A stretch of 50,908 bases of DNA from Gammaproteobacteria bacterium (GCA_030831085.1 JAURLT010000033.1:1-50908), one strand, 5' to 3'. Positions 479-31,086 are shown, counted from the stretch's first letter. Numbers and translations are program-made. Notes: generated by a model from the letters alone, not told the origin.

Positions 479-501
479 TGCTTACACACTTGCTTACACA
501 C
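479..501. repeat. Direct tandem repeat tgcttacacac-t-tgcttacacac in the 537-bp divergent intergenic region
   Basis: Read directly: 479-489 and 491-501 are identical 11-mers separated by one T. Confidence 0.6.
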
Positions 502-11293: not shown

Positions 11294-11404
11294 TTCAAGG
11301 CCTCCGGAGGGGAACTTGCGATTGGGCTACGAATCTACCCTTCGCACGCCGCAGCGGCAATCGCGCGGGCGGCCGGGGAGCTCGATGTGGCATCATTTTC
11401 CTCT

Positions 11405-11884: not shown

Positions 11885-12150
11885 TGCTGTTTGTGATTGC
11901 AATCGCTGTCCTGGTGGCCATGGCGCTGGCGTTGTTGCGGGCCTTTTTGGGACCCACCGTGTTCGACCGCATCCTCGCCGTGAACAGTTTCGGGACTAAG
12001 ACCGTGCTCCTCATCGCGCTGCTGGCTGAAGCGTCCGGTCGGGGTGATTATCTGGACCTTGCCCTCCTGTATGCGCTGCTCAACTTCATCGGCACGGTGG
12101 CCCTGCTGCGCTACACGGAGCAGGAACCGCGTCGGCAGGGCCAGCCATGA
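11884..12150 (+). CDS. mrpF: Na+/H+ antiporter subunit F (MnhF/MrpF)
   Basis: The ATG at 11884 overlaps the mrpE stop (TGATG); the track uses a TTG at 11866. MLFVIAIAVLVAMALALLRAFLGPTVFDRILAVNSFGTKTVLLIALL fits MnhF. Confidence 0.7.
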   Translation: MLFVIAIAVLVAMALALLRAFLGPTVFDRILAVNSFGTKTVLLIALLAEASGRGDYLDLALLYALLNFIGTVALLRYTEQEPRRQGQP

Positions 12151-12458
12151 TGCTGGCCGATGTCATTTCCGCTGGCTTGCTGGGTGTTGGAGCCGCCATG
12201 CTGGTGATCGGCAGCCTCGGTATCAACCGGTTTCCGCATTTCTACTCCAGGCTGCACGCAGCGGGCGTGGTGGATACCATAGCGTCCGGCTTGTTCCTGG
12301 CCGGCCTGGCCGTTCATTTCGGACCTGGTCTCGTGACCATCAAGCTGCTGTTGATCTTCATATTCCTGTTGTTTACCAGTCCGACCGCTTGCCACGCGCT
12401 GGCCAGGGCCGCTTACTCCAGCGGCCTGCGCGAACCCGAGTCGGAGGATGAGCGGTGA
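12147..12458 (+). CDS. mrpG: Na+/H+ antiporter subunit G (MnhG/MrpG)
   Basis: 103 aa. Three TM helices fit MnhG. The start overlaps the mrpF stop (ATGA). Confidence 0.7.
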   Translation: MMLADVISAGLLGVGAAMLVIGSLGINRFPHFYSRLHAAGVVDTIASGLFLAGLAVHFGPGLVTIKLLLIFIFLLFTSPTACHALARAAYSSGLREPESEDER

Positions 12459-12994
12459 TAGAGGAACTGATCGACGTTCTGTTGCTCGTCGCACTCCTGC
12501 TGGTCGCCCTGCAGGTCATCGGCAGCCGGGGATTGTTGGCTGCGATCATGACCTTCGGCGCCTTCAGCCTGGTCTGCGCAGGGCTGTTTATTACCCTTGA
12601 TGCCGTGGATGTGGCCTTTACCGAGGCGGCGGTCGGTGCTGGCGTGGCGACGCTGCTGATGCTCGCCGCCCTGCGGCGCTGCGGAGGCGAACCCGAGGAG
12701 TCGCCGCGCGTGCACTGGGGTGGCCTGGTGACCGTCCTGGTGCTCGGTGGTCTGCTGGTCTGGGGTATCCGCGACCTGCCGCCGGTCGGCCTGGCCGACA
12801 ATCCGGCGCACGAGCACGTGGCGCCTCGCTATCTGGAGCAATCGGGCACGGAGATTGGCATTCCCAACGTGGTCACCAGCGTCCTGGCCAGTTACCGGGG
12901 CTTTGATACCCTCGGTGAGGTCGTGGTGATTTTCACCGCCGGTCTCGGTGTCTGGCTGCTCCTTTCGGGTCGTCGGCCGGAGGAAGAGGAATGA
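12455..12994 (+). CDS. MnhB-domain (DUF4040) membrane protein, the free-standing equivalent of the MrpA C-terminal domain (MbhD/E-like)
   Basis: GTG start overlapping the mrpG stop. 179 aa with about 5 TM helices. Its position between mrpG and mrpB mirrors the Mbh/Mbx-type order. Confidence 0.5.
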   Translation: MIEELIDVLLLVALLLVALQVIGSRGLLAAIMTFGAFSLVCAGLFITLDAVDVAFTEAAVGAGVATLLMLAALRRCGGEPEESPRVHWGGLVTVLVLGGLLVWGIRDLPPVGLADNPAHEHVAPRYLEQSGTEIGIPNVVTSVLASYRGFDTLGEVVVIFTAGLGVWLLLSGRRPEEEE

Positions 12995-13413
12995 GCGACG
13001 ACCTGATCCTGCGAGTCGTCAGCAAGTTCCTGATCCCGGTGATTGTGCTGTTCGGCCTGTATGTGCAGTTCCATGGGGAGTATGGGCCCGGAGGCGGATT
13101 CCAGGCGGGGGTCATTCTGGGCTCTGCCGTGATCCTCTACCTGCTGGTCTTTGGCGCAGACGCGGCGCACGCCGTCGTGCCCACGAGGTGGCTGCGCTGG
13201 CAGGCGGCAGCTGGTGTCTTGCTATATGCCGGCACCGGCGTGGCGACTGTGCTGCTCGGCGGCAATTTCCTCGATTACGACGTACTGGCGAACAGCCCTG
13301 TGGCCGGCCAGCACCTGGGCATTATCCTGATTGAGCTCGGCGTCATGTTGACCGTGTCCTCGACGATCGCGCTGCTGGCCATGCTGTTTGCCGAGAGTCC
13401 GGAGGAACCGTGA
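12991..13413 (+). CDS. mrpB: Na+/H+ antiporter subunit B (MnhB/MrpB)
   Basis: FHGEYGPGGGFQAGVILGSAVILY is the MnhB signature. 140 aa. ATGA overlap. Confidence 0.7.
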   Translation: MSDDLILRVVSKFLIPVIVLFGLYVQFHGEYGPGGGFQAGVILGSAVILYLLVFGADAAHAVVPTRWLRWQAAAGVLLYAGTGVATVLLGGNFLDYDVLANSPVAGQHLGIILIELGVMLTVSSTIALLAMLFAESPEEP

Positions 13414-13757
13414 TCGATCTGGGGCTCTACAACTACTGGATCGTGATCGCGCTGATGATGTCGGGGCTGTATGCACTGATCGCGCGTGGCAACCTCATCC
13501 GCAAGCTGATTGGCCTCAATATCTTCCAGGCTTCGGTGTTTCTGCTCTATATCAGCGTGGGCTTCGTGCGCGATGGCGCCGCCCCCATCCTCGCTCCCGA
13601 TGTCGAGAGTTACTCCAATCCCTTGCCCCACGTGCTGATCCTCACCGCCATCGTGGTGGGCGTGGCTACCACCGCGCTCGGTTTGGCGCTTGCGGTTCGC
13701 ATCCACGGCGCCTACGGCAGCATCGACGATGATGTGCTCGACCGGCAACGAGACTAG
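13410..13757 (+). CDS. mrpC: Na+/H+ antiporter subunit C (MnhC/MrpC, NuoK-like)
   Basis: 115 aa. LIGLNIFQASVFLLYISVGF is NuoK/MnhC-like. GTGA overlap. Confidence 0.7.
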   Translation: MIDLGLYNYWIVIALMMSGLYALIARGNLIRKLIGLNIFQASVFLLYISVGFVRDGAAPILAPDVESYSNPLPHVLILTAIVVGVATTALGLALAVRIHGAYGSIDDDVLDRQRD

Positions 13758-13760
13758 GCC

Positions 13761-15233
13761 GTGATCCTCTCTCATGCCCAGGTCCTGGTGGTTGCGCTGC
13801 CGTTGCTGGCGGTGCCCATCTGCGCCCTGCTGCCCGGGCGCCGTCTGCCGGGCGTCTTTGCGACTCTTGTGGCGTGGGCAGTTCTGGCCCTTGCGCTGCT
13901 GCTGATGCAGGAGGTCTCTGCGGCGGGTGTGCTGCGCTATCAGCTCGGCGGTTGGGCGCCGCCCTGGGGCATCGAGTACCGGCTCGACCGCCTGGCGGCC
14001 CTCGTGCAATTGCTGCTGGCGCTCATCGCGGCCGTCGTCTTGCCCTACGCCGCGCGTAGCCTGAGCGACGAAGTGGGAGAGAGGTCAGGCGGAGCTTTTG
14101 CCGCGCTGCTGCTGCTGCTGACGGGACTGCTGGGTATCGTCGCGACCGGTGACGCGTTCAATGTATTTGTGTTTCTGGAAATCTCGTCACTCGCCAGCTA
14201 CACGCTCATCGCGCTCGGTCGACGCCGGCGTGCGCTGGTGGCCTCGTTCCGCTACCTGATCCTCGGCACCGTGGGCGCCACCTTTTTCCTGATCGGACTG
14301 GGCCTGCTTTACGCCCTGACGGGCACCTTGAACATGGACGACCTGGCGGCCCGCATGCCACCGCTGGCCGGGAGTCCCGCTGCCACTACGGCATTGTTTT
14401 TCATCGTCGTCGGTCTGGGCCTCAAGGCAGCGATGTTTCCCTTGCATCAATGGTTGCCGGACGCCTACGCAGAGGCGCCGCCGGCGGTCAGTGCCTTCAT
14501 GGCAGCGACCTCCACCAAGGTGGCGCTCTATGCCCTCGCCAGATTCCTGTTCGGGGTCTTCGGTTTGCAGCAACTCACCGAAGTCCCGATGCTGCAGGAG
14601 GGGCTGCAGTGGCTGGCAGTGGCGGGCATGCTGGGCGGCTCAATCCTGGCGCTGCGCGCTGCGGATATCGGCCGCATTCTTGCCCTGTCGAGCGTTGCCC
14701 AGGTGGGTTACATCCTGCTGGGGTTTGCCTTGCTTAGTACGGCAGGCGTGGCTGCCGGGCTGGTGCATCTTTTTAATCATGCGCTGATGAAGGGCGCACT
14801 GTTCCTGGCCTTGGGTGCGATGATCCACCGCTGCGGCGGCGGTGAGCTTGCGCGTTTGGAGGGGGTAGGGCACCGCATGCCCTGGACCATGGCGGCCTTC
14901 ATGGTGGGTGCGCTGAGCCTGATCGGCGTTCCGCTCACGGCCGGCTTTGTGGGCAAGTGGTACCTGGTGTCGGCCGTGATCGACCAGAGTGCGTGGTGGC
15001 TGGTGGCTGCCATCCTGGTGTCGTCCATCCTCTCGGTCTTCTATTTGTGGCGGATCGTCGAGGTAGCCTACCGACGACCTGCTGTGATGCCGCCCCGCGC
15101 GGAGGCGCCGCTCATCCTGCTGCTGCCGACTATGCTGCTGGCGCTGGCTAATCTCCTGGTGGGCTTGAACTCCTCGCCCTTGGTCAGCTGGGCGGAGGCC
15201 GCGAGCCTCTCCCTGCTCGGAACGGGGTCATGA
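13761..15233 (+). CDS. MrpD/NuoN-like proton-pumping antiporter subunit (copy 1)
   Basis: 490 aa with about 14 TM helices. The LFNHALMKGALFLALGAMIH block is characteristic of complex-I antiporter-like subunits. Confidence 0.7.
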   Translation: MILSHAQVLVVALPLLAVPICALLPGRRLPGVFATLVAWAVLALALLLMQEVSAAGVLRYQLGGWAPPWGIEYRLDRLAALVQLLLALIAAVVLPYAARSLSDEVGERSGGAFAALLLLLTGLLGIVATGDAFNVFVFLEISSLASYTLIALGRRRRALVASFRYLILGTVGATFFLIGLGLLYALTGTLNMDDLAARMPPLAGSPAATTALFFIVVGLGLKAAMFPLHQWLPDAYAEAPPAVSAFMAATSTKVALYALARFLFGVFGLQQLTEVPMLQEGLQWLAVAGMLGGSILALRAADIGRILALSSVAQVGYILLGFALLSTAGVAAGLVHLFNHALMKGALFLALGAMIHRCGGGELARLEGVGHRMPWTMAAFMVGALSLIGVPLTAGFVGKWYLVSAVIDQSAWWLVAAILVSSILSVFYLWRIVEVAYRRPAVMPPRAEAPLILLLPTMLLALANLLVGLNSSPLVSWAEAASLSLLGTGS

Positions 15234-16690
15234 GCTCAATGGACTGGCTGGCCTGCCTGCTGTGGGTGCCGGCGCTGGGCGTGCTGGGTATCGTGGCGGC
15301 CCGGCGCCATGCCAATCTTCGCGAGTCGGTAACGCTCGTGACGGCCCTGGCGCTGTTTCTGTCCGTCATTCAACTCGCCGCCTCCGGCGAGTCCCCGCGC
15401 TGGGTGCTGGCCGAGCCCCTGCCCGGGCTAGAGCTGGTGCTGTCTCCGGAGCCTCTGGGTCTGATGTTCGGTCTCATCGCCAGCGGTCTGTGGATCGTTA
15501 CGTCAATCTATGCCTTCGGTTACATGCGGGCCAAGCATGAGTCGCACCAGACCCGCTTTTATGCCTGTTTTGCCCTCTCCATCGGGGCAGCCATGGGCAT
15601 CGCCATGTCGGCCAACCTGCTCACGCTGTTTGTCTTTTATGAAGTCCTGACGCTCTCCACCTATCCGCTGGTCGCTCATCACGGCGACGACAAGGCACGA
15701 GCCGGGGCGAGGACCTACCTGCGGATTCTGCTAGGTACGTCCATCGGCCTGCTCCTGCCAGCCATCATCTGGACGTATCACCTCGCCGCGGGGGGCGACT
15801 TTCAGCCTGGTGGAATCCTTGCGGGCCGCGTCGATGCGACTACAGCCGGGCTGCTGCTGGCGCTTTATGTTCTGGGTGTCGGCAAGGCAGCGGTCATGCC
15901 GGTACACCGTTGGCTGCCGGCGGCCATGGTGGCACCGACCCCGGTCTCTGCATTGTTGCACGCCGTGGCGGTGGTCAAGGCGGGCGTGTTTGTCATACTA
16001 AAAGTGGTGGTCTACGTCTTCGGGATGGAATTCCTGGCGGGCGTGCCATTCGAGCGTGCACTGCTCTGGCTGGCCGGTTTTACCGTCCTGGCGGCTTCGC
16101 TGGTGGCCCTCAGGCAGGATAACCTCAAGCGCTTGCTCGCTTATTCCACCATCGGCCAGTTGTCCTACGTGGTCATGGCTGCGCTCACCCTCGGTGCGAC
16201 CGCGGGCTTGGCCGCCGCCTTGCATATCGCAGCGCATGCGGTTGCGAAGATCACCCTGTTCTTCACGGCGGGAGCCATCTACGTGGCGTCCGGCAAGACC
16301 GAGGTGTCGCAGCTCGACGGCATCGGGCGGCGGATGCCGGTGACCATGACCGCCTTCGCCGTTGCCGCACTCAGCATGGTTGGCTTACCGCCGACCGTGG
16401 GCTTCATCTCCAAGTGGATGATCCTGCAGGGTGCGCTGGAGGCGGACCAGCTGTTTGTCGTCACGGTGCTGGTCATCTCCACGGGACTGAATGCGGCGTA
16501 CTTCATGCCCATTGTCCACCGCGCCTTCTTCCGCGAAGAGCAGTCGGTCCCGAAAAATCACGGTGAGGCTCCGCCGCCAATGGTGGCTGCGCTGGTCGTC
16601 ACCGCGCTGTTGACCCTCCTCGGTGCGCTGGCCGCAGACGCGTTGATTGCCATGCAGTCGCCAGTGATGTTGGCCGGGAGAGTGGAATGA
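15230..16690 (+). CDS. MrpD/NuoM-like proton-pumping antiporter subunit (copy 2)
   Basis: 486 aa. ATGA overlap. The LHIAAHAVAKITLFFTAGAIY block is present. Confidence 0.7.
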   Translation: MSSMDWLACLLWVPALGVLGIVAARRHANLRESVTLVTALALFLSVIQLAASGESPRWVLAEPLPGLELVLSPEPLGLMFGLIASGLWIVTSIYAFGYMRAKHESHQTRFYACFALSIGAAMGIAMSANLLTLFVFYEVLTLSTYPLVAHHGDDKARAGARTYLRILLGTSIGLLLPAIIWTYHLAAGGDFQPGGILAGRVDATTAGLLLALYVLGVGKAAVMPVHRWLPAAMVAPTPVSALLHAVAVVKAGVFVILKVVVYVFGMEFLAGVPFERALLWLAGFTVLAASLVALRQDNLKRLLAYSTIGQLSYVVMAALTLGATAGLAAALHIAAHAVAKITLFFTAGAIYVASGKTEVSQLDGIGRRMPVTMTAFAVAALSMVGLPPTVGFISKWMILQGALEADQLFVVTVLVISTGLNAAYFMPIVHRAFFREEQSVPKNHGEAPPPMVAALVVTALLTLLGALAADALIAMQSPVMLAGRVE

Positions 16691-16935
16691 AGCGATGGTT
16701 CGAGCGCCTTGAGGGCGAGCGGCTGCCCCGCCGCTTCTGGCTGATCCTGTGGGCGGCGCTGGGCCTGAGCCTGGCGGCCCAGCTGCTGGTGCACCTGCAC
16801 GGATATTTCGGCTTCGATGAGTGGTTCGGTTTCAACGCTGTCTGGGGGTTCCTGACCTGCGTGGTCATGGTGCTTGGGGCGAAGCTGCTGGGGGTTGCGC
16901 TTAAGCGGCCTGAGGATTACTACGACCATGACTGA
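16687..16935 (+). CDS. Small membrane protein (82 aa) embedded between antiporter subunits
   Basis: ATGA overlap upstream, and ATGACTGA overlap with the next gene. There is one clear TM segment (FWLILWAALGLSLAAQLLV) and a second hydrophobic stretch (VWGFLTCVVMVLGAKLLGV). Confidence 0.5.
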   Translation: MKRWFERLEGERLPRRFWLILWAALGLSLAAQLLVHLHGYFGFDEWFGFNAVWGFLTCVVMVLGAKLLGVALKRPEDYYDHD

Positions 16936-18586
16936 GCTGGCTTTACTTCCCGCCGTGTGGTTAATGACTGGGGCGTTGTTGTCTGCTGTGCTGACCGGTC
17001 GAGCCCGGGAAGGGGTGATCCTGCTGGCCCCGCTGCTGGCCCTGTGGGCGGTTTGGCAACTGCCTGACGGCAACCTGTGGTCGATCAGCTACCTGGGCAT
17101 GACGCTCGAGCCCCTGTACGCGGATTCCCTCCGCCGGCTCTTCGCGACGGTGTTCTGCCTGATGGCCTTTACCGGTGCGCTGTTCGCCTTGCGCCAGTCG
17201 GCGGGTCGCGAATTGTCTGCCGCACTCGCCTATGCCGGGGGCGCCTTGGGAGTGTGCTTTGCCGGTGACCTGTTCACCCTGTTCCTGTTCTGGGAAGTCA
17301 TGGCGGTTTTTTCGACGCTGGTGATCTGGTGTGGCGGCGGTGACGGTGCCCGCCAGGCTGGCTTCAGATACGCGGTACTGCACTTTCTGGGTGGCGTAGT
17401 CCTGATGGCCGGCATCATCTGGCTGGGCGTCGAATCCGGGTCGCTGTCCATACGCGTACTGGAGCTGACCCACCCCGCAGCATGGCTGGTGCTTATCGGC
17501 GTGCTGGTCAACGCTGCAGCGCCGCCCTTTAGTGCCTGGGTGGCGGATGCCTATCCGGAGGCAAGCGCAGGCGGCAGCGTTTTCCTTTCGGCGTTCACCA
17601 CCAAGACAGCGGTGCTGGTCCTGATGCTCCTGTTTCCCGGCACTAAATTGCTCATCGGGGTAGGCCTGTTCATGGTGTTCTACGGCATTGTCTACGCGCT
17701 GCTCGAGAACGACATGCGACGCATCCTTGCGTATTCGATCGTCAACCAGGTCGGATTCATGGTCTGCGCCGTCGGCATTGGAACCGGGATGGCCCTGAAC
17801 GGTGCCGCGGCGCATGCCTTTGCCCATATCATCTACAAGGCGCTGCTGCTCATGAGCGCCGGTACGGTGCTCTGGCGAACCGGTCGACGGAAGTGCACCG
17901 ATCTCGGCGGACTGTACCGCTCGATGCCGTTCACCACCGCCTGCGGCATCATCGGCGCTCTCGCTATCTCCGCATTTCCCTTTACCTCTGGCTTCGTCAG
18001 CAAGTCCCTGACCAGCCAGGCGGCTGCTGACCTGTCGATGACCTGGGTCTGGCTGGCACTGACGGCCGCCTCGGCCGGGGTGTTCCTGCATGCGGGCATC
18101 AAGTTTCCGTGGTTTGTGTTCTTCCAGCGTGATTCCGGGCTCAGGCCGGCCGACCCCCCCTGGAATATGCGCCTGGCCATGGGCCTGTTTGCCCTGCTGT
18201 GCATCGTCCTTGGCTGCTTTCCTTCGCTGTTGTACGGTTTGCTGCCGTACCCTGTGGATTACCGCCCCTATACGGCGTCTCACCTCGTCAGCCAATTCCA
18301 GCTGCTGTTGTTTTCCGGTCTGGCCTTCTTTGCCCTGCTGCCAGCCATGCGTCGCACGCTGACCATCACGCTGGATTTCGATTGGCTCTATCGGGTGCCG
18401 CTGCAGCGCGTGGTGCTGGGGGTCGGCCAATTGCTGGAAATCTCGCGGGCGGCAATCGGCCAGGGGATGGTCAGCCTGATTGACCGGTTGCCTTCGCCCG
18501 AGCGGCTGGCACCGGTGACTGCGCCCGCCGGCGGCATGCTTCTGGTGCTGTTGATGGTTCTAATCGCGGGGATGCTGCTGGCCTGA
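16928..18586 (+). CDS. MrpA N-domain/NuoL-like antiporter subunit that lacks the fused MnhB domain (copy 3)
   Basis: The in-frame ATG at 16928 (MTELALLPAV) overlaps the small ORF stop; the track starts at 16874. 552 aa. The AFAHIIYKALLLMSAGTVL block fits a NuoL/MrpA-type subunit. Confidence 0.65.
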   Translation: MTELALLPAVWLMTGALLSAVLTGRAREGVILLAPLLALWAVWQLPDGNLWSISYLGMTLEPLYADSLRRLFATVFCLMAFTGALFALRQSAGRELSAALAYAGGALGVCFAGDLFTLFLFWEVMAVFSTLVIWCGGGDGARQAGFRYAVLHFLGGVVLMAGIIWLGVESGSLSIRVLELTHPAAWLVLIGVLVNAAAPPFSAWVADAYPEASAGGSVFLSAFTTKTAVLVLMLLFPGTKLLIGVGLFMVFYGIVYALLENDMRRILAYSIVNQVGFMVCAVGIGTGMALNGAAAHAFAHIIYKALLLMSAGTVLWRTGRRKCTDLGGLYRSMPFTTACGIIGALAISAFPFTSGFVSKSLTSQAAADLSMTWVWLALTAASAGVFLHAGIKFPWFVFFQRDSGLRPADPPWNMRLAMGLFALLCIVLGCFPSLLYGLLPYPVDYRPYTASHLVSQFQLLLFSGLAFFALLPAMRRTLTITLDFDWLYRVPLQRVVLGVGQLLEISRAAIGQGMVSLIDRLPSPERLAPVTAPAGGMLLVLLMVLIAGMLLA

Positions 18587-18669
18587 CGCTTCCGCGGCGA
18601 TAGCTACCGTTGATGGGCGTGGCAGACTTCCGGGTTGCCGTCAAAAACCGGGCATGCTGAGATGCGTGC

Positions 18670-20754
18670 ATGAAATTTCGCTACGCTGTGTTGCTGATGT
18701 TGGCGTGCCTGCCTCCCGCGTGGCTCGTGCTCGAACCGATTGGCCAGCCACCGCAAGCAGATCCACGTTCATTTATCGGACTGGGTGCAAGCCATGAGGT
18801 CAGGATTCGTCGTGACACCTGGGGCGTACCCCATATCAAGGGCGTGACCTCTGCCGATGCTGCCTTTGGCCTGGCCTACGCGCATTGCGAGGACGACTTC
18901 CAGACCATTGAGGACGTGCTGCTGGCCACCCGCGGCCGACTGGCCGAGGAGGCCGGGCCTGCTGCAGCGGTAGGTGATTATCTGGTTCATCTGCTCGACG
19001 TTCAGGCCACCGTCGAGGCTGGTTTTGAGGCGCTGCCCGCCGACCTGAGGGCCGTGCTGCAGGGCTATGCTGACGGCGTTAATTTCTACGTCGCAAAGAA
19101 TCCCGATCTGGCAAACCCGACCCTGCTGCCTGTGACGGACCGCGACATCGCCGCCGGTTTCGTGTTCAAGACCCCCTTCTTTTACGGCCTGGATCGCGAG
19201 CTGCGTCGCCTGTCCGAGGCGCCGGCGGACCCCTACCCCAAGGGATCCAATGCCGTGGCGCTGGCGCCTTCCCGCTCTGCGGAGGGGGCCACGCGACTGC
19301 TGGTCAACTCGCACCAGCCCTTCGAGGGCCCGGTGGCCTGGTACGAGGCCGTGGTGCAGAGCGACGATGGCTGGCATGTCGCCGGCGGCTTCTTTCCGGG
19401 CTCACCCTTCATGCTGCATGGGCACAACGAGCACCTCGCCTGGGCCAATACGGTCAACGCGCCCGACCTCGTGGATGTCTATCGGCTCGAGGTGGATCCG
19501 GGCGACCCTGAACGCTACCGATTCAATGGAGCATGGAAGCCCTTCGAGAAGCAGCGGGTGGGCATCCGGGTTCGGATCTGGGGGCCGTTTCACTGGACCT
19601 TCCGGCGCGAAGTACTGAAGAGTGTCCACGGCCCGGTGCTGGTCACCGATCACGGCCATTTCGCCTTGCGCTATGCCGGGATGGGGGAGTCGCGCCAGGC
19701 TCTGCAGTACTGGCGCCTGAATCGAGCCGAAAACCTGCAGGAGTGGAAGGAGGCGATGGCCCTGCAAGCGCTGCCCAGCATCAACTACCTGTATGCCGAT
19801 CGAGATGGCAACATCGGCTATGTCTACAACGGGCAGTTCCCGCGGCGGGCGGCGGGCGTGGATTGGTCCACCATCCTGCCTGGCGATCGGCCAGAGCTGG
19901 TCTGGAATGGCTACCTGGACTTCGACGCCGTGCCGCAGATATGGAATCCCGCTTCCGGGCTGCTGTTCAACGCCAACAACACGCCCTTTGTCGCCACGGG
20001 TGGTGACGATGGCCTGAACGAAGAGGACTTCGCCCCGGAGATGGGGATCCAGCAGGACATGACCAATCGGGCCTGGCGCCTGCTGGAAACCTACGGCTCG
20101 GATCCCGCAATCACCGACGATGAGTTTCATCGCTACAAGTACGACCTCACCTACAGCCCCCGCTCGGAAACGGCAGCCGTCGTCCGTGAGGTATTGGCGA
20201 GAAAAGCCGAGGCCGGTCCGAAACTTGCTGCGGAGCTGGACCTGTTGGCCAGCTGGGACCTGAATACCGACCGTGCCAACCGGGCTGCGCCGCTCGGCGT
20301 GCTCGCGGCAACCCACGTCATCAAGGCCCGGGAGGTCGGCAAAGTACCGGATGTCCTGGAGACGCTGGCTGAGGTGTCTGCCACGTTAAGGCGACATCAC
20401 GGACGTATCGATCCGCAATGGGCAGAGGTCAACCGCTTGCGCCGTGGCAGCGTGGATCTGCCGGTGGATGGTGGTCCGGATATCGTGCGGGCCATCTACG
20501 GGGCTGAAGATGAGGACGGCCGCTTGCGCGCTGTGGCGGGTGATACGCTGGTAATGTTCGTCAGCTGGGACCGTCGAGGCGAGCTGTCCAGCGAGGTTGT
20601 TCACCAGTTCGGCAGCGCCACCGGGCGGCCCGAATCACCCCACTATGCCGACCAAGTTCCCTTGTTTGCCGGAATGAAAACGCGCCCCGTACTGTTCACT
20701 GAAGAACAGCTGGCGGGGCGGGTGGCCGAAGACTATCGCCCAGGAGAACGCTAG
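18670..20754 (+). CDS. Penicillin acylase family Ntn-hydrolase (possible AHL acylase)
   Basis: 694 aa with a signal peptide. The RRDTWGVPHIKGVTSADAAFGLAYAHCEDD N-terminal block (GVPHI) and the overall size are typical of the PvdQ/QuiP/PGA family. Confidence 0.7.
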   Translation: MKFRYAVLLMLACLPPAWLVLEPIGQPPQADPRSFIGLGASHEVRIRRDTWGVPHIKGVTSADAAFGLAYAHCEDDFQTIEDVLLATRGRLAEEAGPAAAVGDYLVHLLDVQATVEAGFEALPADLRAVLQGYADGVNFYVAKNPDLANPTLLPVTDRDIAAGFVFKTPFFYGLDRELRRLSEAPADPYPKGSNAVALAPSRSAEGATRLLVNSHQPFEGPVAWYEAVVQSDDGWHVAGGFFPGSPFMLHGHNEHLAWANTVNAPDLVDVYRLEVDPGDPERYRFNGAWKPFEKQRVGIRVRIWGPFHWTFRREVLKSVHGPVLVTDHGHFALRYAGMGESRQALQYWRLNRAENLQEWKEAMALQALPSINYLYADRDGNIGYVYNGQFPRRAAGVDWSTILPGDRPELVWNGYLDFDAVPQIWNPASGLLFNANNTPFVATGGDDGLNEEDFAPEMGIQQDMTNRAWRLLETYGSDPAITDDEFHRYKYDLTYSPRSETAAVVREVLARKAEAGPKLAAELDLLASWDLNTDRANRAAPLGVLAATHVIKAREVGKVPDVLETLAEVSATLRRHHGRIDPQWAEVNRLRRGSVDLPVDGGPDIVRAIYGAEDEDGRLRAVAGDTLVMFVSWDRRGELSSEVVHQFGSATGRPESPHYADQVPLFAGMKTRPVLFTEEQLAGRVAEDYRPGER

Positions 20755-22373
20755 CGATCCAGGTTGGCGATGGTCGCTGTGACGTCGTAGCGTTCCACGT
20801 CGACATCATGGAAGGAGTAGCTGTCACCATCGGTGTCGACCAGCTTGATGTCGAAAATGGGATTACTGTAGCCCTGTAGTGAAAAGCGCATGCTCTCTCC
20901 GTTAGAGAGAATACGGCCCTCCAGCAGGTCATCTTCCCAGGAGCTGGCATTGTCCGGGCTGATGAAAATCTGCCCCAACGGGTATCCCGTATTGTTGGTG
21001 ACAACGACATGCAACTCGCTCAGATTCTGGGCGGCCTGCGCAGCCCTTGCAGAATCCAGCGGCATATTCGTATCCACCGCCGCAGGCATCAGAGTCCCGG
21101 TATCTTCGTAGGCTGGGGATTCACTGGCCATGGCATATGCCTCGACGTCCTGGAAATCCTCATCGTAGCTGGCAGCCGTTGCCCAGTCGTAAACCGAAGA
21201 AGTTCCCCACAAGACCAGCGAGAGCGCCACTGAACCCGCGTAGAGCTTTGGCACCAGTTTCTGTCTTTCCCGAATGGAACTGTATTCCTCCTCTGCCTGG
21301 TTCTTGAGGGAGGAGAAATCCGCCCCACGTCCGGCGGTCTTGATGGCCTCGAGCAGGCCCTGCCGGAAGCGCTGGCTATTTTCCTGGACCCGCTTGCCAA
21401 GGGAGTTGCTAAGGTAATAACCCACTCCGAGGATGGCCGCCGCCACCCATAAGGCCTTGCCAAACACCAGGGCGAGCATGCCGTTCGCGATGCCGGGCAG
21501 CCATGACATGTGCCCAAGCTTGTCGATTTCCGCCTGCCACTGACGTCGTTTGTCGTCCTCCGGACGATAGCCGAAGACCTGTCCAGAGCCGGCGTCCATC
21601 ACGACCTGATAGGTCGTGCCGTCATATTCATAGGTTTGTAGCCAAACCCCGGCGAGGAACGGGGTGCGGTCCTCTACGTCATAGTCAAAGGATACCTTGA
21701 CATTACGGTGGTGCGTGGGCGCTGACTCCATCGCCAGACCGTGTACGTGTGATTCAAGACGGGGATAGCCGCGGGCCATGAAAACTTCGTCGGACTCCAC
21801 CTGCTCGATCGCATGTTCAATGGCGTGATCCTTGACCAGGTCCGGAGAAAACTTGCTCAGTGCCTGGTCCTCGGTAGCCATTTGCAGGTTCCGAAGTAAT
21901 TCCTCGTCGATCCTCTGGGCAAGACAAACATCAAGCGTGCGCCTGCCCTTGAGGTTCCTCTGGAAGGGCTCCCAGGCAATTTCGGTGCGCTTCTGGTTGA
22001 CGTACTGGTTGCCAACCTTGACTCGAACGTAGTGGATTTCCTCGCGCCCAGCGTCGCAGGTCATCGCGCCGTCAAAGGAAAGTTTGTGGCGGTGAAATGG
22101 CGCGTACACGGCGTGGAGATCCTCCTTGACCTCGAAACTGATCAGGAGGTCGTCTGGGGTGAACTCTCCAGCTGCAAGAAACTCCAGGGTCTTTTCCTCG
22201 AATTCCTGACGCCCAAGCTTGATCGGGATCATTGCATTGAAGGTGATCGCTTCCGCATTCGGATCGCTGATTACCATGGTCTGGCCACAGTACGGGCACT
22301 CGGCGCTTGGCACCCCGGCCACAAAATCCAGGTTGCTGCCGCAACCCTTGCAGTTCAGTACGGTAACTTGCAT
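20751..22373 (-). CDS. Zinc-ribbon plus 2-TM protein of unknown function (third gene of the SPFH module)
   Basis: The N-terminal CKGCGSNLDF...ECPYCGQ is a four-Cys zinc ribbon. Two TM helices sit around residues 290-330 and 380-400. The C-terminal domain is uncharacterised. 540 aa. Confidence 0.55.
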   Translation of the reverse strand: MQVTVLNCKGCGSNLDFVAGVPSAECPYCGQTMVISDPNAEAITFNAMIPIKLGRQEFEEKTLEFLAAGEFTPDDLLISFEVKEDLHAVYAPFHRHKLSFDGAMTCDAGREEIHYVRVKVGNQYVNQKRTEIAWEPFQRNLKGRRTLDVCLAQRIDEELLRNLQMATEDQALSKFSPDLVKDHAIEHAIEQVESDEVFMARGYPRLESHVHGLAMESAPTHHRNVKVSFDYDVEDRTPFLAGVWLQTYEYDGTTYQVVMDAGSGQVFGYRPEDDKRRQWQAEIDKLGHMSWLPGIANGMLALVFGKALWVAAAILGVGYYLSNSLGKRVQENSQRFRQGLLEAIKTAGRGADFSSLKNQAEEEYSSIRERQKLVPKLYAGSVALSLVLWGTSSVYDWATAASYDEDFQDVEAYAMASESPAYEDTGTLMPAAVDTNMPLDSARAAQAAQNLSELHVVVTNNTGYPLGQIFISPDNASSWEDDLLEGRILSNGESMRFSLQGYSNPIFDIKLVDTDGDSYSFHDVDVERYDVTATIANLDR

Positions 22374-22388
22374 GTTTTTCTTCCTTGT

Positions 22389-23081
22389 TCAGCCCTTGCT
22401 TCGCGCGGTGCGTAAATGGAGGTCGCGCAGACTCAACAGCCGTAGAATCTTGTTGATTCCGGCCTCAAGTTCTTCCGGACTGCTGTTCACCAGATGGTGG
22501 AGTTCGCCGATCGCTGCAGCAATGTCGGCATTCTGTGGCGTGCCCTCTGCAGAGTCGCTGGGTGCATAGCGGCATTTTTCAGCCAGAGCCAGCAGGGCCG
22601 AGCGCATGCCAGCGTCGCGGGCATGGGCGCTCAGCACCTGTACCTGCTGATACCACTCGAGGTGTGCACTGCGTGGCGCTTCGGTAGTTGTGGCATGAGT
22701 CACGACTTCCTTCACCTTGCCAAGTACCAGCACGCCTATGGCCGTTGCGGCCACCGCGACGATGACCAGTGCCACAGACAGCTTTTCGGCACCTGCGATT
22801 GCGAGGACCAGGGCCAGCAGGGTGATGCCGATCACCACCAGGTTCAGGAAGAAATCGGGTCCCAGCAGCGCCAGCGGTACTGCATCATTGCCTTTGTGCC
22901 GCCCGGTCATGACCGCCAAAAGTCCTCCGACTGCTAACGACCAGGCAAAGGCCAGCGCTACAGCCAGCAGGCTGATGGCAACACTCCACTCCTCAAGCCG
23001 ATCGCCCAGCAGCAGCCAGCCAAGGGCAAGGACGGTGAGTGCGGCAATGGCAGGAATCGCCAACCCGGCTACGCGGTTCAT
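22389..23081 (-). CDS. Four-TM membrane protein of unknown function (middle gene of the SPFH module)
   Basis: The ATG at 23081 gives MNRVAGLAIPAIAALTVL and forms an ATGA overlap with the SPFH gene stop (23078-23080). The track's longer start is at 23102. Confidence 0.5.
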   Translation of the reverse strand: MNRVAGLAIPAIAALTVLALGWLLLGDRLEEWSVAISLLAVALAFAWSLAVGGLLAVMTGRHKGNDAVPLALLGPDFFLNLVVIGITLLALVLAIAGAEKLSVALVIVAVAATAIGVLVLGKVKEVVTHATTTEAPRSAHLEWYQQVQVLSAHARDAGMRSALLALAEKCRYAPSDSAEGTPQNADIAAAIGELHHLVNSSPEELEAGINKILRLLSLRDLHLRTARSKG

Positions 23082-24328
23082 GACGCCACCTCCGTGCCAC
23101 ATTCACCGCAGAACCTGGCGCCCCGGGTGAGCGCCGCGCCGCATTTGGCGCAGGCGGCAACCTGGCCCGACCCGCACTCGGGGCAGAACTTGCTGGAGGC
23201 GGGAATTGCGGCCGCGCACTTGACGCAGGCCTGAGGCATGTCGGCGCCGCACGATCGACAGGTTGAAGCGTCGCTGGCATTGTCGTCCCCGCATTTGGGG
23301 CAGGCGGTGACAGGGTCGGCGCAGTGCGGACAAAACTTGGAGCCACGAGGCATCGATCCCTGGCACTTGTCGCAGGTAATGGTCGGTGCCGGCGGTGGAG
23401 AGCCGGGGCCAGCCCCGCCCCCTTGGCCGGGTCCGCCAGGATTGCCTCCCGGCTGCAGGACAGAGCCAAGTTGGCCCACGCCCTGACCCAGTGGCACCCC
23501 TATGCCAACGCCTAAGCCCATGCCGAGACCGGCGCCCATCACGCCTCCCGCCGTGCCCTCGTTGCCCGCTGCAGTCTGCAGGATGTCGAGGCTACGATCC
23601 TGTTGATAGCTGATGCCCAGCAGGGAGAGTTCCGTCCGTTTGGCGAGGGCGGCTTTAAGCGTCTGCACCGCCGGGTCATCTTCCGGCACGTTGATGGAAT
23701 GAATATTGAACTGGACCAGACTGACGCCGTATTCCGCGAGGTCTGGTTGCAGGCTGTCCTTCAGTAAGCCGGACAGGGTGTTGAGTTCGGTGGAGATCTC
23801 CAGCACCGACTTGCCGTTCTTGATGATGGCGTCGGCGACTGCATTCTTGATCCGTGTCGTGAGCACCCCGCGCATGTAATTGGCGACGGTGGTCGAGTCA
23901 AACTTCGGTAGGGTTCCCACCAGCTTTAGCAGGAAGCGCTTGCTGTCCTCGATCAGGATGCCGTACTGGCCGAACGCCCTGACCGGGCACATGATCTGGA
24001 ACTTGGGATCCTGCAGCTGGATGGGGTCTGGTGTGCCCCAGCGGACGTCGAGGTTGGTGGCCTTGTTGACGTACCAGACCTCGGCGGTGAACGGGGTCTC
24101 GCCGCCAAAGGGTGCGGCAATCAGCCCCCTCAGCAGGGGAATGTTGGCCGTGCTCAGCGTGTGACGACCGGCCAGGAAGGGGCCCTGGTACACGCCTTCC
24201 TTGACCAGGAAGGCTTCCTGGGACTCGCTGACGATCAGCTGCGTCGCCGTAGACAGGTTCTCGGAGCCGAACTTCCAGGCAAGAATATCCGGCGACCCGT
24301 CCCATTTGACGCGGTCAATAATGGCCAT
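23078..24328 (-). CDS. SPFH/band-7 (stomatin/flotillin-like, COG4260 'virion core protein' type) protein with a C-terminal multi-zinc-ribbon tail
   Basis: The N-terminal 250 aa has the SPFH fold (MAIIDRVKWDGSPDILAWKF...). A Gly-rich linker follows. The tail has four CxxC...CxxC ribbons: CDKC..CPHC, CPKC..CRSC, CVKC..CPEC, CAKC..CGEC. Confidence 0.7.
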   Translation of the reverse strand: MAIIDRVKWDGSPDILAWKFGSENLSTATQLIVSESQEAFLVKEGVYQGPFLAGRHTLSTANIPLLRGLIAAPFGGETPFTAEVWYVNKATNLDVRWGTPDPIQLQDPKFQIMCPVRAFGQYGILIEDSKRFLLKLVGTLPKFDSTTVANYMRGVLTTRIKNAVADAIIKNGKSVLEISTELNTLSGLLKDSLQPDLAEYGVSLVQFNIHSINVPEDDPAVQTLKAALAKRTELSLLGISYQQDRSLDILQTAAGNEGTAGGVMGAGLGMGLGVGIGVPLGQGVGQLGSVLQPGGNPGGPGQGGGAGPGSPPPAPTITCDKCQGSMPRGSKFCPHCADPVTACPKCGDDNASDASTCRSCGADMPQACVKCAAAIPASSKFCPECGSGQVAACAKCGAALTRGARFCGECGTEVAS

Positions 24329-24398
24329 CGGTCCCCCTCGGTTAAGTCAAATCGGGGGTGAGTTTAGGCGGACTTTTGGCTCAAAACCAAGAAATCGG

Positions 24399-28674: not shown

Positions 28675-31059
28675 ATGAAGAGCAAGCTATCGATCGGCGG
28701 TTCTCTATGGCTGGGAGCATCGCTGGCCCTGCCCATTCAGGCACAAGAGGTGGCTAAGGCGTCCGCTGAGACTGCCACGCAACTTCAGGAAATCACCGTC
28801 ACCGCCACCAAGCGGGACGCGCTGGCGCACAAGATTCCGTATAACGTCACCGCCATCGGTGAATCCGAGCTACGTGCCGAGAACATCACCGACATCAAGT
28901 CGCTGATCGCCAACAGCGTCGGTATCGATGCGCCGCAGAACGGTGCCCGCTTTACTGATTCGGTCACGGTACGTGGCTTGAATATCTCGCGTGCAGATGC
29001 CAACAACCTCGAATGGTTCACCCGCAGCACGCTGGCCTACTACCTCGACGATGCGCCGCTGCCGTTCATGGCCTACCGCATCAAGGACGTCGCGCGTGTG
29101 GAGACCCTGCTCGGTCCGCAGGGCACCCTCTTCGGCGGAGGCGCCCTGGGGGGCGCCGTGCGCTACATCACCAACCAGCCCAAGATCGGCGAAATGGAAG
29201 CGCGTATTTCCACCAGCTTCTACCAGACCAAAAACGGCGGGCTGTCCAACGATACCGATGCGATGGTAAACCTGCCGCTGGGCGACACGGTGGCGTTGCG
29301 CATCTCGCTCGCTCGCCTTGATGAGAAGGGGTACACCGACCGCTATGCCGCCACGCCCGATTACCTGAGCGACTCGCCGTGGACGCCGCTGCCCAATGGT
29401 TCCAAGGACGTCTACAAGGATGATGACTGGAACGAGGTGGAAGGCGGCCGGATCGCCCTGCGCTGGCAGGCGTCGGAAAACTTCGCCCTCACCCTGTCAC
29501 ACATCGACCAGTCCCAGACCGCGCATGGCACGCGCGGAGCGCAACTGGTGGTCGGGTTCGGTGACCCGGGGCGCTACACGGCACCTCAGGCGTTCAATTC
29601 CCAAACGGTGCTGTCGCGTTACCCCGAATACCTGGATCGCGACTTCCGCATGTCGACCCTGAGCTTCGAGTGGGACCTTGGCTTCGCCAACCTGACTTCA
29701 TCGACCTCGGACTACGAGGACATTCGCGAAGGCGAGGCCGACTACCTGGCCTATGGGTCCTTCTTCTACGGCACCCTGGGTTTCTCGCCCTTTGAACTCG
29801 GCAACCCGAACTGGGCCGGTGAGACCTCCTACATCACCTTCGATAACCGCAACAGCGGACTGCTGCACGAGACGCGGCTGGTCTCTGCTGGCGACGGTCC
29901 GCTCAGCTGGGTGGTGGGCGTCTACTATGCCGACCAGGATCGTCAGCAGCAGTTCTCGGAGTGGATGCCGGGGCTTGAGCCCTACAAGTTCGGCGGTGGC
30001 CGCACCGATGAGGGCTACAACGAAAACCAGGCTGGTGACTTCACCGAGAGCGCACTGTTCGGCGAGTTGTCCTACCAGGTTACTCCTAAGCTGACCCTGA
30101 CCGGTGGCGCCCGGCTGTTCTCCTACGAGGACAAGTCGCTGAACCGTGTCGAAGACTACGCCTTCGACCTGGTCACCGGCACCAAGGTGGACAAGGAGAA
30201 GAAGAGCGGCGAGTCCTACTTCAAGTTCAACGCCTCCTACGAAATCACCGACGACTTCCTGGGCTACGCCACCTTCTCCCAGGGCTTCCGCCGTGGCGGT
30301 GCCAACAACTGGCGCGAGGGGCCCGAGTGCTTCACCTGTGGCGGGGCGATCTCGGACGAGTTGCGCAACTACCAGCCGGATACGACCGATAACTACGAAC
30401 TGGGCCTGAAGGGCTTCCTGCTCGACCGGCGCCTGTACCTGCAGGCCAGCCTGTTCGCCATCGACTGGAACGATCCCCAGACCTACTTCTCGCAGGACGT
30501 GAACTTCTTCCCGGTCAACGGCACCACCAACGGTCCGGACGCCCGGTCGGAAGGCTACGAGCTACAGGGTAACTTCCTGCTCGGTGCGGGGTTCCAGTTC
30601 TCGTTTGCCACCAACCGCACCGAAGCGGAGTGGGACGAGACCAAGACCCTCTGCCTGTACGCCAATGGCACCTCCTGCCGGACCTACAACAAGGGCGGCA
30701 AGCTGGGCGGTACGGCCAAGGACAAGTACACGCTGGGCCTGCGCTGGCGGGGTTCCACCAGTGGTGGTCTCGACCTGAACGCCTCAGCGCGCATGCGTTA
30801 CCAGGGCAAGAAGCAGTCGGATCGTGGTGACAACCCGGACTCGGTCATTTTCGCCTATCCTAGCTACTCCACGCTAAACCTCAATTTCGGAGCGGCGACG
30901 GATAAATGGGACCTGAACGTCTGGATCAACAACGCTACCGACGAGGACAAGGTGGTTTCCTTCCAGGGAACCTCCTTGATCGGCAACATCACCGGCCTGC
31001 GGGCGATCTACCTGCAGCCGCGCACCATCGGGACGACCTTCAGCTACTACTTCCGCTGA
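28675..31059 (+). CDS. TonB-dependent outer-membrane receptor
   Basis: Signal peptide, then a plug domain (ITVTATKRDALAHKIPYNVTAIG, NLEWFTRSTLAYYLDDAPLPFMAY), then a long beta-barrel. 794 aa. The C-terminus is unusual: ...FSYYFR. Confidence 0.8.
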   Translation: MKSKLSIGGSLWLGASLALPIQAQEVAKASAETATQLQEITVTATKRDALAHKIPYNVTAIGESELRAENITDIKSLIANSVGIDAPQNGARFTDSVTVRGLNISRADANNLEWFTRSTLAYYLDDAPLPFMAYRIKDVARVETLLGPQGTLFGGGALGGAVRYITNQPKIGEMEARISTSFYQTKNGGLSNDTDAMVNLPLGDTVALRISLARLDEKGYTDRYAATPDYLSDSPWTPLPNGSKDVYKDDDWNEVEGGRIALRWQASENFALTLSHIDQSQTAHGTRGAQLVVGFGDPGRYTAPQAFNSQTVLSRYPEYLDRDFRMSTLSFEWDLGFANLTSSTSDYEDIREGEADYLAYGSFFYGTLGFSPFELGNPNWAGETSYITFDNRNSGLLHETRLVSAGDGPLSWVVGVYYADQDRQQQFSEWMPGLEPYKFGGGRTDEGYNENQAGDFTESALFGELSYQVTPKLTLTGGARLFSYEDKSLNRVEDYAFDLVTGTKVDKEKKSGESYFKFNASYEITDDFLGYATFSQGFRRGGANNWREGPECFTCGGAISDELRNYQPDTTDNYELGLKGFLLDRRLYLQASLFAIDWNDPQTYFSQDVNFFPVNGTTNGPDARSEGYELQGNFLLGAGFQFSFATNRTEAEWDETKTLCLYANGTSCRTYNKGGKLGGTAKDKYTLGLRWRGSTSGGLDLNASARMRYQGKKQSDRGDNPDSVIFAYPSYSTLNLNFGAATDKWDLNVWINNATDEDKVVSFQGTSLIGNITGLRAIYLQPRTIGTTFSYYFR

Positions 31060-31086
31060 TCGTCGCCGGCCGACAGTCCTTAGGCT

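Follow-up and report, generated by a model that had tools for sequence, protein, structure and literature searches.

A PspA-less Gram-negative relative of the YdjG/YdjI (SamG/SamI) module as a candidate envelope-stress sensor and scaffold

Introduction

The coupling of an SPFH protein to YdjG, YdjH and PspA is known in Firmicutes (PMC8581546, PMC11237479). In Bacillus subtilis, the SPFH protein YdjI is soluble and depends on both YdjG and YdjH to form membrane foci; YdjI interacts with YdjH and PspA, YdjG interacts with YdjH, and YdjI is needed for the formation of PspA foci (PMC8581546). The reported architecture of YdjG consists of two zinc ribbons, a domain stated to adopt an NTF2-like fold related to YpeB, and a C-terminal transmembrane (TM) helix (PMC11237479). 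A 2026 preprint renamed the genes samGHI and argued that SamGH forms a complex that senses membrane stress, that the SPFH protein SamI keeps this complex in check, and that PspA is dispensable for that phenotype (bioRxiv 10.64898/2026.02.06.704340). Here, we analyse three adjacent minus-strand genes in 50,908 nucleotides of DNA from a Gammaproteobacteria bacterium (GCA_030831085.1, JAURLT010000033.1:1-50908; the whole stretch is called the window hereafter). They encode an SPFH protein (gene 1), a 4-TM protein (gene 2) and a zinc-ribbon membrane protein (gene 3), and we propose, with moderate confidence, that this trio represents a Gram-negative form of the YdjG/YdjI (SamG/SamI) module that lacks PspA.

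To our knowledge, YdjGHI/SamGHI has been studied only in B. subtilis. More generally, SPFH proteins commonly scaffold membrane proteases. The HflK/C-FtsH and QmcA-YbbJ (NfeD) systems share with gene 1 the SPFH fold and an expected oligomeric scaffolding at the inner membrane, but their SPFH proteins have their own TM anchor, face the periplasm (HflK/C) or are paired with NfeD, and match Pfam Band_7, all features that gene 1 lacks. PspA-free Band-7 variants of other phage-shock-protein (PSP)-type operons have also been noted (Ravi et al. 2024, PMC11237479). In the literature that we searched, there is no description of a PspA-less pair of SPFH and YdjG-like proteins outside Firmicutes, of a three-gene form with a 4-TM protein, or of three-TM YdjG-like proteins with exchangeable periplasmic domains.

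Results

Genes 1 and 3 are homologous to YdjI and YdjG

The ydj locus of the B. subtilis group was found by scanning metagenome contigs for a published ydjG cloning primer (PMC8581546), and YdjG, YdjH and YdjI were read off. YdjI matches Pfam Band_7_1 (8.2e-43, 146.9 bits) and carries one C-terminal zinc ribbon; gene 1 aligns with it over 241 residues at 22% identity (BLASTP, E=1e-17). Residues 8-320 of gene 3 align with residues 56-341 of YdjG (BLASTP, E=5e-11), and the profile of a 42-sequence gene 3 family aligns with YdjG over 263 columns (hhalign, 99.9%, E=6.8e-32). The ribbon of gene 3 pairs with the second YdjG ribbon (YdjG residues 56-79), and its residues 291-320 with the C-terminal hydrophobic segment of YdjG, directly after the domain. 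The parallel with pspA-ydjGHI, which the original prediction had drawn from gene composition, is thus one of homology and not of analogy.

The two systems are also alike in build. Gene 1 shares with YdjI/SamI the Band_7_1 domain, the lack of a TM helix, a low-complexity linker and a C-terminal zinc ribbon, and the N-terminal region of gene 3 shares with YdjG/SamG a zinc ribbon, an alpha+beta domain without a Pfam model and a membrane anchor. Both sets of genes are operonic, and the domain that defines YdjH, TPM, is present in a sister lineage on the gene 3 orthologue (P0016). The P0016 domain and YdjH each match Pfam TPM independently; a direct sequence link between them was not significant by BLASTP and was discarded. 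The differences are as clear. No pspA is found at the trio of the window, as had been noticed at the outset together with the differing gene order, which is reversed with the SPFH gene first. Indeed, phmmer with one Bacillus PspA detected none in the six-frame open reading frames (ORFs) of the 50.9-kb window and of the trio loci. B. subtilis has a separate TPM protein, YdjH, whereas the middle gene here encodes a family-less protein with four TM helices and a helical bundle (gene 2 has no TPM match). YdjG has two zinc ribbons and gene 3 only one, to which gene 3 adds two predicted membrane segments and a putative periplasmic beta-sandwich; YdjI has one ribbon and gene 1 four. Since the host is Gram-negative, the sigma-W control of the B. 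subtilis operon is inapplicable. Finally, no NfeD, FtsH or other protease domain was found in genes 1-3 (Pfam, NCBIfam), and none of the three proteins matched any family of PADLOC-DB v2 at E<=1.

Gene 1 is a Band_7_1 protein with a zinc-ribbon tail

Gene 1 matches Band_7_1 (PF13421) at 4.8e-42 (144.4 bits against a cut-off of 24), and the generic Band_7 model lies far below (5.3e-07). Its tail matches DZR (8e-25) and Zn_Ribbon_1 (2.9e-16), with the DZR/Zn_Ribbon models spanning residues 341-414, and contains eight CxxC motifs (residues 319, 333, 343, 357, 368, 382, 393 and 407) that make up four ribbons. The succession of SPFH domain, Gly-rich linker and four ribbons initially described is therefore confirmed. 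No TM helix is predicted, as no 19-residue window has a Kyte-Doolittle mean of at least 1.6, the threshold applied. With this, the dominance of Band_7_1 over Band_7 and the lack of an NfeD match, gene 1 is not a protein of the HflK/C or QmcA type. Orthologues 56-62% identical to gene 1 are encoded in three other lineages (L005, L026, L027). A phage origin, evoked by the old COG name 'virion core protein-like', was considered and rejected: relatives occur in only 2 of 50,697 phage records, both of them unannotated faecal-metagenome fragments.

Gene 3 joins a YdjG-like region to a predicted periplasmic domain

Gene 3 has no significant family in Pfam, NCBIfam, PADLOC or PHROGs. The sole Pfam match in the gene 2 and gene 3 scans ('Glycoamylase', 20 bits) was under the cut-off, lay over the TM and linker region, and was set aside as spurious. 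A word-indexed search retrieved full-length relatives only in a few Steroidobacteraceae-type metagenome-assembled genomes (MAGs), and phmmer against 1.84 billion representatives returned 1,322 proteins at E<=1e-3, which fall into two groups matching either residues 1-~280 or residues ~450-540. Many of the N-terminal matches, ~360 residues long, have the build reported for YdjG (PMC11237479): a pair of zinc ribbons, this domain and a TM helix at the C-terminus. Pfam has no model for the core domain and recognises only the ribbons (Zn_Ribbon_TF and similar), and the N-domain has no PDB relative by Foldseek; its profile gave only zinc-ribbon and low-complexity noise against PDB sequences. With neither a family match nor a PDB-sequence relative of its N-domain, gene 3 is not a known enzyme. 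The conserved positions are the four Cys, the TPDD motif and a number of Gly, Pro, Trp and Tyr positions; no catalytic-looking set of residues is conserved in the N-domain alignments, which leads us to read the core as a putative interaction domain. Among the affiliations that the original prediction wished to see tested for gene 3, the one with YdjG holds, and those with DUF4178 and TPM find no match in Pfam.

The AlphaFold2 (AF2) model of gene 3 has a mean predicted local distance difference test score (pLDDT) of 87.6. It displays a ribbon (1-50), an alpha+beta domain with long hairpins (55-270), helices at 274-289, 291-304, 308-347 and 354-403, a disordered stretch (410-441) and a beta-sandwich (454-534). 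The ribbon and the globular domain up to ~270 agree with the first description of the protein, but the two TM helices of that description are more likely three segments, i.e. a short hairpin followed by a helix at 373-395, as judged from the AF2 model and from the relatives. In P0016, the closest divergent orthologue (43% identity), the compressed stretch 291-322 of gene 3 corresponds to two distinct hydrophobic helices, and P0102, P0053 and P0067 likewise have two separate TM helices at this position. The relatives that end in TonB_C (P0102), SH3_3 (P0080) or TPM (P0016) have three TM helices, two of them close and the third ~60 residues further on. Gene 3 probably has three membrane segments as well. 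The sequence past residue 395 is strongly acidic, and stand-alone members of the C-terminal family have Sec signal peptides or lipoboxes; together with the TM pattern of the relatives and the charge distribution, this points to a cytoplasmic N-terminus and a periplasmic C-terminus with its beta-sandwich.

What had been taken for a C-terminal domain of ~150 residues resolves into a disordered acidic linker of ~45 residues and a beta-sandwich of ~90 residues (450-540). The latter has no Pfam model, and its profile gave only noise against PDB sequences. The family shares the motifs TNxTGY, W and DxDGDxY, the last of which resembles a Ca2+-binding loop; an approximate consensus of the family is YVxITNxTGYxIxxIYVSPxxSxxWExDVLGxxxLxxGxTxRxxLxGYxSPIFDIRxVDEDGDTYTF. 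Its members (relatives P0018-P0162) comprise secreted proteins or lipoproteins of ~110 residues, tandem repeats of up to 8 copies, and fusions to Trypsin_2, Peptidase_C14 and RDD. The sole structural neighbour found by Foldseek is PDB 2mca, an uncharacterised Eubacterium rectale protein (YP_002937094.1) with 15-18% identity to the gene 3 beta-sandwich, which the profile of the C-terminal family does not recover by sequence.

Two side observations concern the distribution of the N-domain. The gene 3 model matches by Foldseek, over 250-380 columns, two giant-virus proteins of BFVD annotated as 'DnaJ-like subfamily C member 3', A0A5K0UBJ7 of Yasminevirus (E=8.7e-10) and A0A3G4ZSZ8 of Edafosvirus (E=5.8e-07), and this model-based similarity suggests that the YdjG-type domain also exists in nucleocytoviricota. 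Relatives of the N-domain are also present in two phage records (H12, H13; Enterococcus phage Efs 1-1-1).

Gene 2 is a 4-TM protein with a helical tail

Hydropathy and the AF2 model agree on four TM helices in gene 2 (5-24, 33-58, 74-95 and 99-~122), followed by a tail (139-229) modelled as a helical bundle with a pLDDT of 85-90, so that the initial description of this protein is retained. The bundle is confidently modelled and predicted to be cytoplasmic; the C-terminal end of the protein is a conserved basic motif, RSKG. No family was found in Pfam, NCBIfam, PADLOC or PHROGs, and word-indexed sequence and profile searches returned only Steroidobacteraceae-type relatives at least 78% identical, plus a 219-residue protein of L011 that aligns end to end with gene 2 at 29% identity. 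In addition, the C-terminal half of the middle protein of L026 matches the gene 2 profile (E=8.9e-5). The build of the middle-gene product was compared wherever DNA existed (L011, L026, L027 and Bacteroides L020): all four proteins have four TM helices and then a helical tail of 100-130 residues ending in [SA][KR][GVA].

The trio and the SPFH/YdjG-like pair recur in distant lineages

As expected from the original prediction, the genes co-occur elsewhere: the order SPFH gene, gene for a 4-TM protein of ~219-261 residues and gene for a YdjG-like protein is found in six independent lineages (Table 1), and the pair without the middle gene in further ones. A related-locus search with a narrower N-domain alignment yielded one locus, of the same lineage as L005, and L022 is a four-gene variant whose two middle genes encode a 3-TM protein and a TPR protein. 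Bacteroides L020 associates an SPFH-GYF_2 protein with a 4-TM protein with a tail and then a zinc ribbon-TPR protein.

Table 1. Lineages with the order SPFH protein, 4-TM middle protein, YdjG-like protein
Locus	SPFH protein	Middle protein	YdjG-like protein	Next to the trio
Window and L002/L003	Zinc-ribbon tail	230 aa	Beta-sandwich end	
L005/L011 (Gammaproteobacteria MAG)	56% identical, SHOCT tail	219 aa	P0016, TPM end	
P0033 locus (GCA_041443045.1)	Band_7_1, SHOCT tail	232 aa	508 aa	Followed by VWA, PP2C_2 and Pkinase genes
P0117 locus	343 aa	229 aa	307 aa	
L026	62% identical, SHOCT tail	227 aa	TonB_C end	Adjoins a serine recombinase
L027	Four zinc ribbons, phmmer 6.5e-129	261 aa	731 aa, three TM helices	

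In the two-gene form, the SPFH gene directly precedes a gene whose product combines two zinc ribbons with the YdjG-family domain and a TM helix. This arrangement is found in Comamonas (Betaproteobacteria), Paracoccus (Alphaproteobacteria), Vibrio (Gammaproteobacteria) and Tsukamurella (Actinomycetota), and the SPFH proteins of these pairs have no TM helix, match gene 1 at 1e-36 to 1e-39 and end in HTH- or GYF-like tails. The N-domain is present in 10 of 72,556 plasmid records (Paracoccus 5, Vibrio 2, Pseudorhodobacter, Tsukamurella and Comamonas) and a relative of gene 1 in 146; all the organism groups of the former recur among the latter, and the two genes are adjacent wherever both coordinates are listed.

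Across these loci, it is mainly the ends of the proteins that change. The periplasmic end of the YdjG-like protein is a beta-sandwich, TPM, TonB_C or nothing depending on the lineage, and the tails of the SPFH relatives are zinc ribbons, SHOCT, GYF_2 or HTH. The SPFH proteins of L005, L026 and L027 are 56-62% identical to gene 1, versus 20-29% for the 4-TM protein and ~25-43% for the YdjG-like protein, which indicates a much higher rate of evolution in the two partners than in the SPFH scaffold. The short variants P0117 and P0041 as well as P0033 have no predicted TM helix; at such loci, the 4-TM middle protein would be the sole integral anchor.

Another similar arrangement is the PspA-free Band-7 + SHOCT variant of the polyamine/DUF350/DUF4178 PSP-type operons (Ravi et al. 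2024, PMC11237479), found here on a Ralstonia solanacearum megaplasmid (L021, 4539-8131) as DUF350, SPFH-SHOCT, a zinc ribbon/DUF4178 x2/TM protein and an AdoMet-decarboxylase-like gene, along with a small Gly/Ser-rich TM protein. In both, a Band_7_1 SPFH protein that has a Gly-rich segment and ends in a small adaptor is combined with a zinc-ribbon membrane partner and a small 4-TM protein, and PspA is absent. However, the partner of the Ralstonia operon combines its zinc ribbon with two DUF4178 domains (1.2e-30), its 4-TM protein is DUF350 and polyamine genes lie alongside, whereas genes 2 and 3 match neither DUF4178 nor DUF350 at E<=1 (Pfam). SPFH proteins that resemble gene 1 and end in SHOCT are encoded in 132 Ralstonia megaplasmid records, the operon content being taken from one of them; in one record, the SPFH gene bears the misleading annotation 'ydjI: antifreeze protein, type I'.

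Mobile or conflict-related genes were seen next to some of the recurrent loci: TIR-domain and TRAF-binding genes by the Vibrio pair (L019, plasmid of V. coralliilyticus OCN008, 1-3833), AbiJ_NTD3, a fragmented DDE transposase and an integrase in L013 (3325-5606; P0041), and DUF2924 and a large serine recombinase in L026 (7705-9551).

Operon layout and surroundings of the trio

The ORFs and their junctions confirm that the three genes form one operon as initially read, with the stop of gene 1 and the start of gene 2 overlapping in an ATGA (23081-23078, context gtcATGAacc) and a 15-nucleotide gap ahead of gene 3 (Table 2). This overlap sets the ATG of gene 2 at 23081; the longest ORF (22389-23102) starts 7 codons upstream of the ATGA, and all homologues begin at the ATGA methionine. 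Orthologues with 78-88% amino-acid identity are found in identical gene order in Steroidobacteraceae MAGs, which supports that the genes are real.

Table 2. Positions of the three genes and of their predicted features in the window
Feature	Position	Strand	Description and basis
Gene 1	23078..24328	-	YdjI/SamI-type SPFH protein, 416 aa; ORF listing
Gene 1 SPFH (Band_7_1) domain	23678..24259	-	Residues 24-217; Pfam coordinates
Gene 1 Gly-rich linker	23384..23581	-	Residues ~250-315; glycine-zipper-like hydrophobic stretch 262-280 and Pro/Gly spacer; sequence reading
Gene 1 zinc-ribbon module	23081..23383	-	Residues 316-416; four tandem CxxC-x10-CxxC ribbons (two DZR units); Pfam and CxxC positions
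Gene 2	22389..23081	-	4-TM protein, 230 aa; ORF listing and homologue starts
Gene 3	20751..22373	-	YdjG/SamG-like membrane protein with an added, predicted periplasmic domain, 540 aa
Gene 3 zinc ribbon	22269..22373	-	C8, C11, C26, C29 (CKGC...CPYC, residues 8-29); Cys columns (nearly) invariant in family alignments
Gene 3 alpha+beta YdjG-family domain, predicted cytoplasmic	21504..22268	-	Residues ~36-290; long beta-hairpins, TPDD and W-x-x-Y-x-Y motifs; pLDDT mostly >90
Gene 3 predicted short membrane hairpin	21408..21503	-	Residues 291-322, helices 291-304 and 308-322; AF2 helix break and relatives
Gene 3 helical loop	21258..21407	-	Residues 323-372, Lys/Arg-rich at both ends; probably cytoplasmic by the positive-inside rule
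Gene 3 predicted third TM segment	21189..21257	-	Residues ~373-395; hydropathy and AF2 helix 354-403
Gene 3 acidic disordered linker, predicted periplasmic	21027..21188	-	Residues ~396-449; pLDDT <50 at 410-441
Gene 3 beta-sandwich, predicted periplasmic	20754..21026	-	Residues 450-540; motifs TNNTGY, W, D-x-DGD-x-Y; phmmer relatives and fold
Gene 2-gene 3 spacer	22374..22388	-	15 nt, acaaggaagaaaaac, with Shine-Dalgarno-like AAGGAAG inside
Intergenic region upstream of gene 1	24329..24398	-	70 nt, ribosome-binding site GAGGGGGA

A promoter may be located in the 70-nucleotide gap upstream of gene 1. A scan for the sigma-70 consensus revealed no site in the region, this gap included, so that read-through from the upstream permease gene is possible; the terminator-like matches of the region are all intragenic. 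Downstream, gene 3 overlaps by 4 nucleotides, stop codon against stop codon (20751-20754), with a convergent penicillin-amidase-family acylase gene (18670-20754, plus strand), which leaves no space for an intergenic terminator. The same overlap exists in L002 (9587-9590). Besides this acylase gene, the flanks encode a cytosine/purine-type permease and two beta-lactamase-fold hydrolases, the permease and hydrolases being on the strand of the trio.

The original prediction regarded the surroundings as an accessory stretch, which finds little support. The flanks of the trio are syntenic in related MAGs, with an identical neighbourhood in L002 and L003, there is no tRNA in the window and no integrase near the trio. 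The GC content is 0.58 over genes 3 and 2 (21001-23000) versus 0.63-0.68 (~0.64) in the flanking 10 kb, a modest dip that is compatible with, but no proof of, a separate ancestry of these two genes. An extra Amidohydro_3 gene, located in related Steroidobacteraceae MAGs between the acylase gene and Mrp-type antiporter genes, is missing from the window (18587-18669 versus 11746-13476 of L002), and the DNA just beyond the trio thus varies among relatives. Further away, the AT skew is strongly negative (-0.26 to -0.32) at 8001-19000 and 31001-33000, in long plus-strand stretches; synteny with L002 assigns Proton_antipo_M-type multisubunit cation/proton antiporter genes to the skewed 13.7-18.6 kb, and T-rich codons of membrane proteins account for the skew.

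Discussion

We favour, as reasonably probable, that the trio acts as a PspA-independent envelope-stress sensor and scaffold in which gene 1 would be recruited to a gene 2/gene 3 membrane complex. Overall, this agrees with the membrane-integrity function in a Gram-negative background that the original prediction put forward alongside membrane remodelling and phage response. Two of the three proteins are homologous to YdjI and YdjG, and the domain architecture, the topology indicators and the conservation of the operon are in line with this homology. On this basis, we infer physical interactions, SPFH oligomerisation, stress sensing and PspA independence along the following scheme. Genes 3 and 2 would constitute an inner-membrane sensor and anchor complex, to which gene 3 would contribute a cytoplasmic ribbon and YdjG-family domain, a hairpin and third TM segment as anchor, and a beta-sandwich exposed in the periplasm on a flexible acidic linker, and gene 2 its four TM helices with the helical bundle on the cytoplasmic side. 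Gene 1 would be drawn to this complex at the inner leaflet or at its cytoplasmic faces and would oligomerise there as an SPFH ring or cage, restraining or scaffolding the sensor as is proposed for SamI and SamGH. The zinc-ribbon array of gene 1 may serve as an exchangeable adaptor that decides which partners or clients are recruited, and the periplasmic domain of gene 3, swapped between lineages, may decide which envelope cue or structure is sensed. The exchange of both termini with conservation of the cores across lineages fits such a sensor-scaffold function.

Several points weigh against this proposal. The whole mechanism is carried over from a single Gram-positive system whose proteins share 20-22% identity with those studied here. 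Gene 2 has no homology to YdjH, its role being deduced from position and architecture, and for gene 3 a hairpin topology is predicted. The glycine-zipper stretch of gene 1 (262-280) reaches a Kyte-Doolittle mean of 1.54, the 19-residue maximum of the protein and just under the TM threshold, and might enter the membrane unaided. A pspA gene could lie elsewhere in the genome, the single-sequence phmmer search having covered 50.9 kb of it. Among 17 sampled lineages with a YdjG-like gene, 5 have no SPFH gene nearby (P0008, P0030, P0017, P0061 and P0041, the last with insertion sequence fragments upstream) and 12 do, in a non-random sample that includes B. subtilis; pairing with the SPFH gene is consequently frequent and not obligatory. 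Finally, some loci adjoin defence-like or mobile genes (P0033, P0041, the Vibrio pair and L026).

As an alternative, the trio might be a strict PspA adaptor, devoid of any function of its own and tethering a PspA/IM30 protein encoded elsewhere to the damaged membrane. The requirement of YdjI for PspA foci in B. subtilis (PMC8581546) and the fact that only 50.9 kb of the genome are visible speak for it. Yet no pspA was found at the window, trio or pair loci examined, SamGHI has PspA-independent phenotypes (bioRxiv 10.64898/2026.02.06.704340), and the SPFH tail varies between zinc ribbon, SHOCT, GYF_2 and HTH, which argues against a single fixed client; we hold this explanation to be unlikely. 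Alternatively, in an anti-phage or conflict system, the sensor would detect infection-linked damage to the envelope and the SPFH assembly would trigger or gate a membrane-directed abortive response. This would give meaning to the VWA, PP2C and Ser/Thr-kinase genes that follow the P0033 trio, since a VWA-PP2C-kinase triad has been described in NTP-dependent conflict systems with Band7-like domains as effectors (PMC7159879). The TIR and TRAF-binding neighbours of the Vibrio pair, the AbiJ, insertion sequences and integrase of P0041, the serine recombinase of L026 and the faster divergence of the partners (20-43% identity versus 56-62% for the SPFH protein) go in the same direction. Such neighbours are nevertheless anecdotal, the three proteins have no PADLOC match and no evident enzymatic or pore-forming effector domain, and the trio of the window is flanked by ordinary transport and hydrolase genes that are syntenic across MAGs, all of which makes a dedicated defence role decidedly improbable.

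A classical protease or quality-control partnership of the HflK/C-FtsH or QmcA-NfeD type, in which gene 1 would form a cage around a membrane protease or around a client, for instance the neighbouring permease, would be in keeping with the usual role of SPFH proteins as protease scaffolds. It would also suit the relatives of the C-terminal domain of gene 3 that are fused to Trypsin_2 or to caspase-like peptidases. It is made very unlikely by the lack of an N-terminal TM anchor in gene 1 and its preference for Band_7_1 over Band_7, by the lack of NfeD, FtsH and protease domains in genes 1-3, and by the flanking permease and hydrolases, which are not kept with the trio in other lineages. That the trio is an accessory part of the neighbouring catabolic cluster, co-transcribed with it, appears hardly tenable: the common strand with the permease and hydrolases, the gap of only 70 nucleotides without a promoter-like site and the identical neighbourhood in L002 and L003 would suit this idea, but the synteny is limited to close relatives, and the module is retained among other neighbours in L005/L011, L026, L027 and the plasmid pairs.

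Beyond the proposed sensor and scaffold, a more daring variant can be formulated, which we advance as speculative and rather doubtful. The trio would be a self-contained transmembrane signalling or conflict device working without PspA, in which an exchangeable periplasmic reader (beta-sandwich, TPM or TonB_C) reports an envelope insult, possibly inflicted by a phage or toxin, to an SPFH cage whose tail (zinc ribbons, SHOCT, GYF or HTH) selects the output. If true, it would represent a modular sensor-scaffold-output logic so far undescribed for bacterial SPFH proteins.

To conclude, the core system is already characterised and our results extend a known kind. They show an SPFH and YdjG-like core that is spread over Proteobacteria, Actinomycetota and Firmicutes, usually without pspA, and whose three-gene form brings in an unnamed 4-TM protein and a YdjG-like protein with a lineage-swapped, predicted periplasmic domain. 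Two widespread domains also stand out for having neither a Pfam model nor a solved relative, namely the core of YdjG and the beta-sandwich of the secreted TNxTGY/DxDGDxY family. This work offers a frame for addressing the role of TM-less Band_7_1 SPFH proteins in Gram-negative bacteria and the generality of the proposed design of an 'SPFH brake on a membrane stress sensor'.

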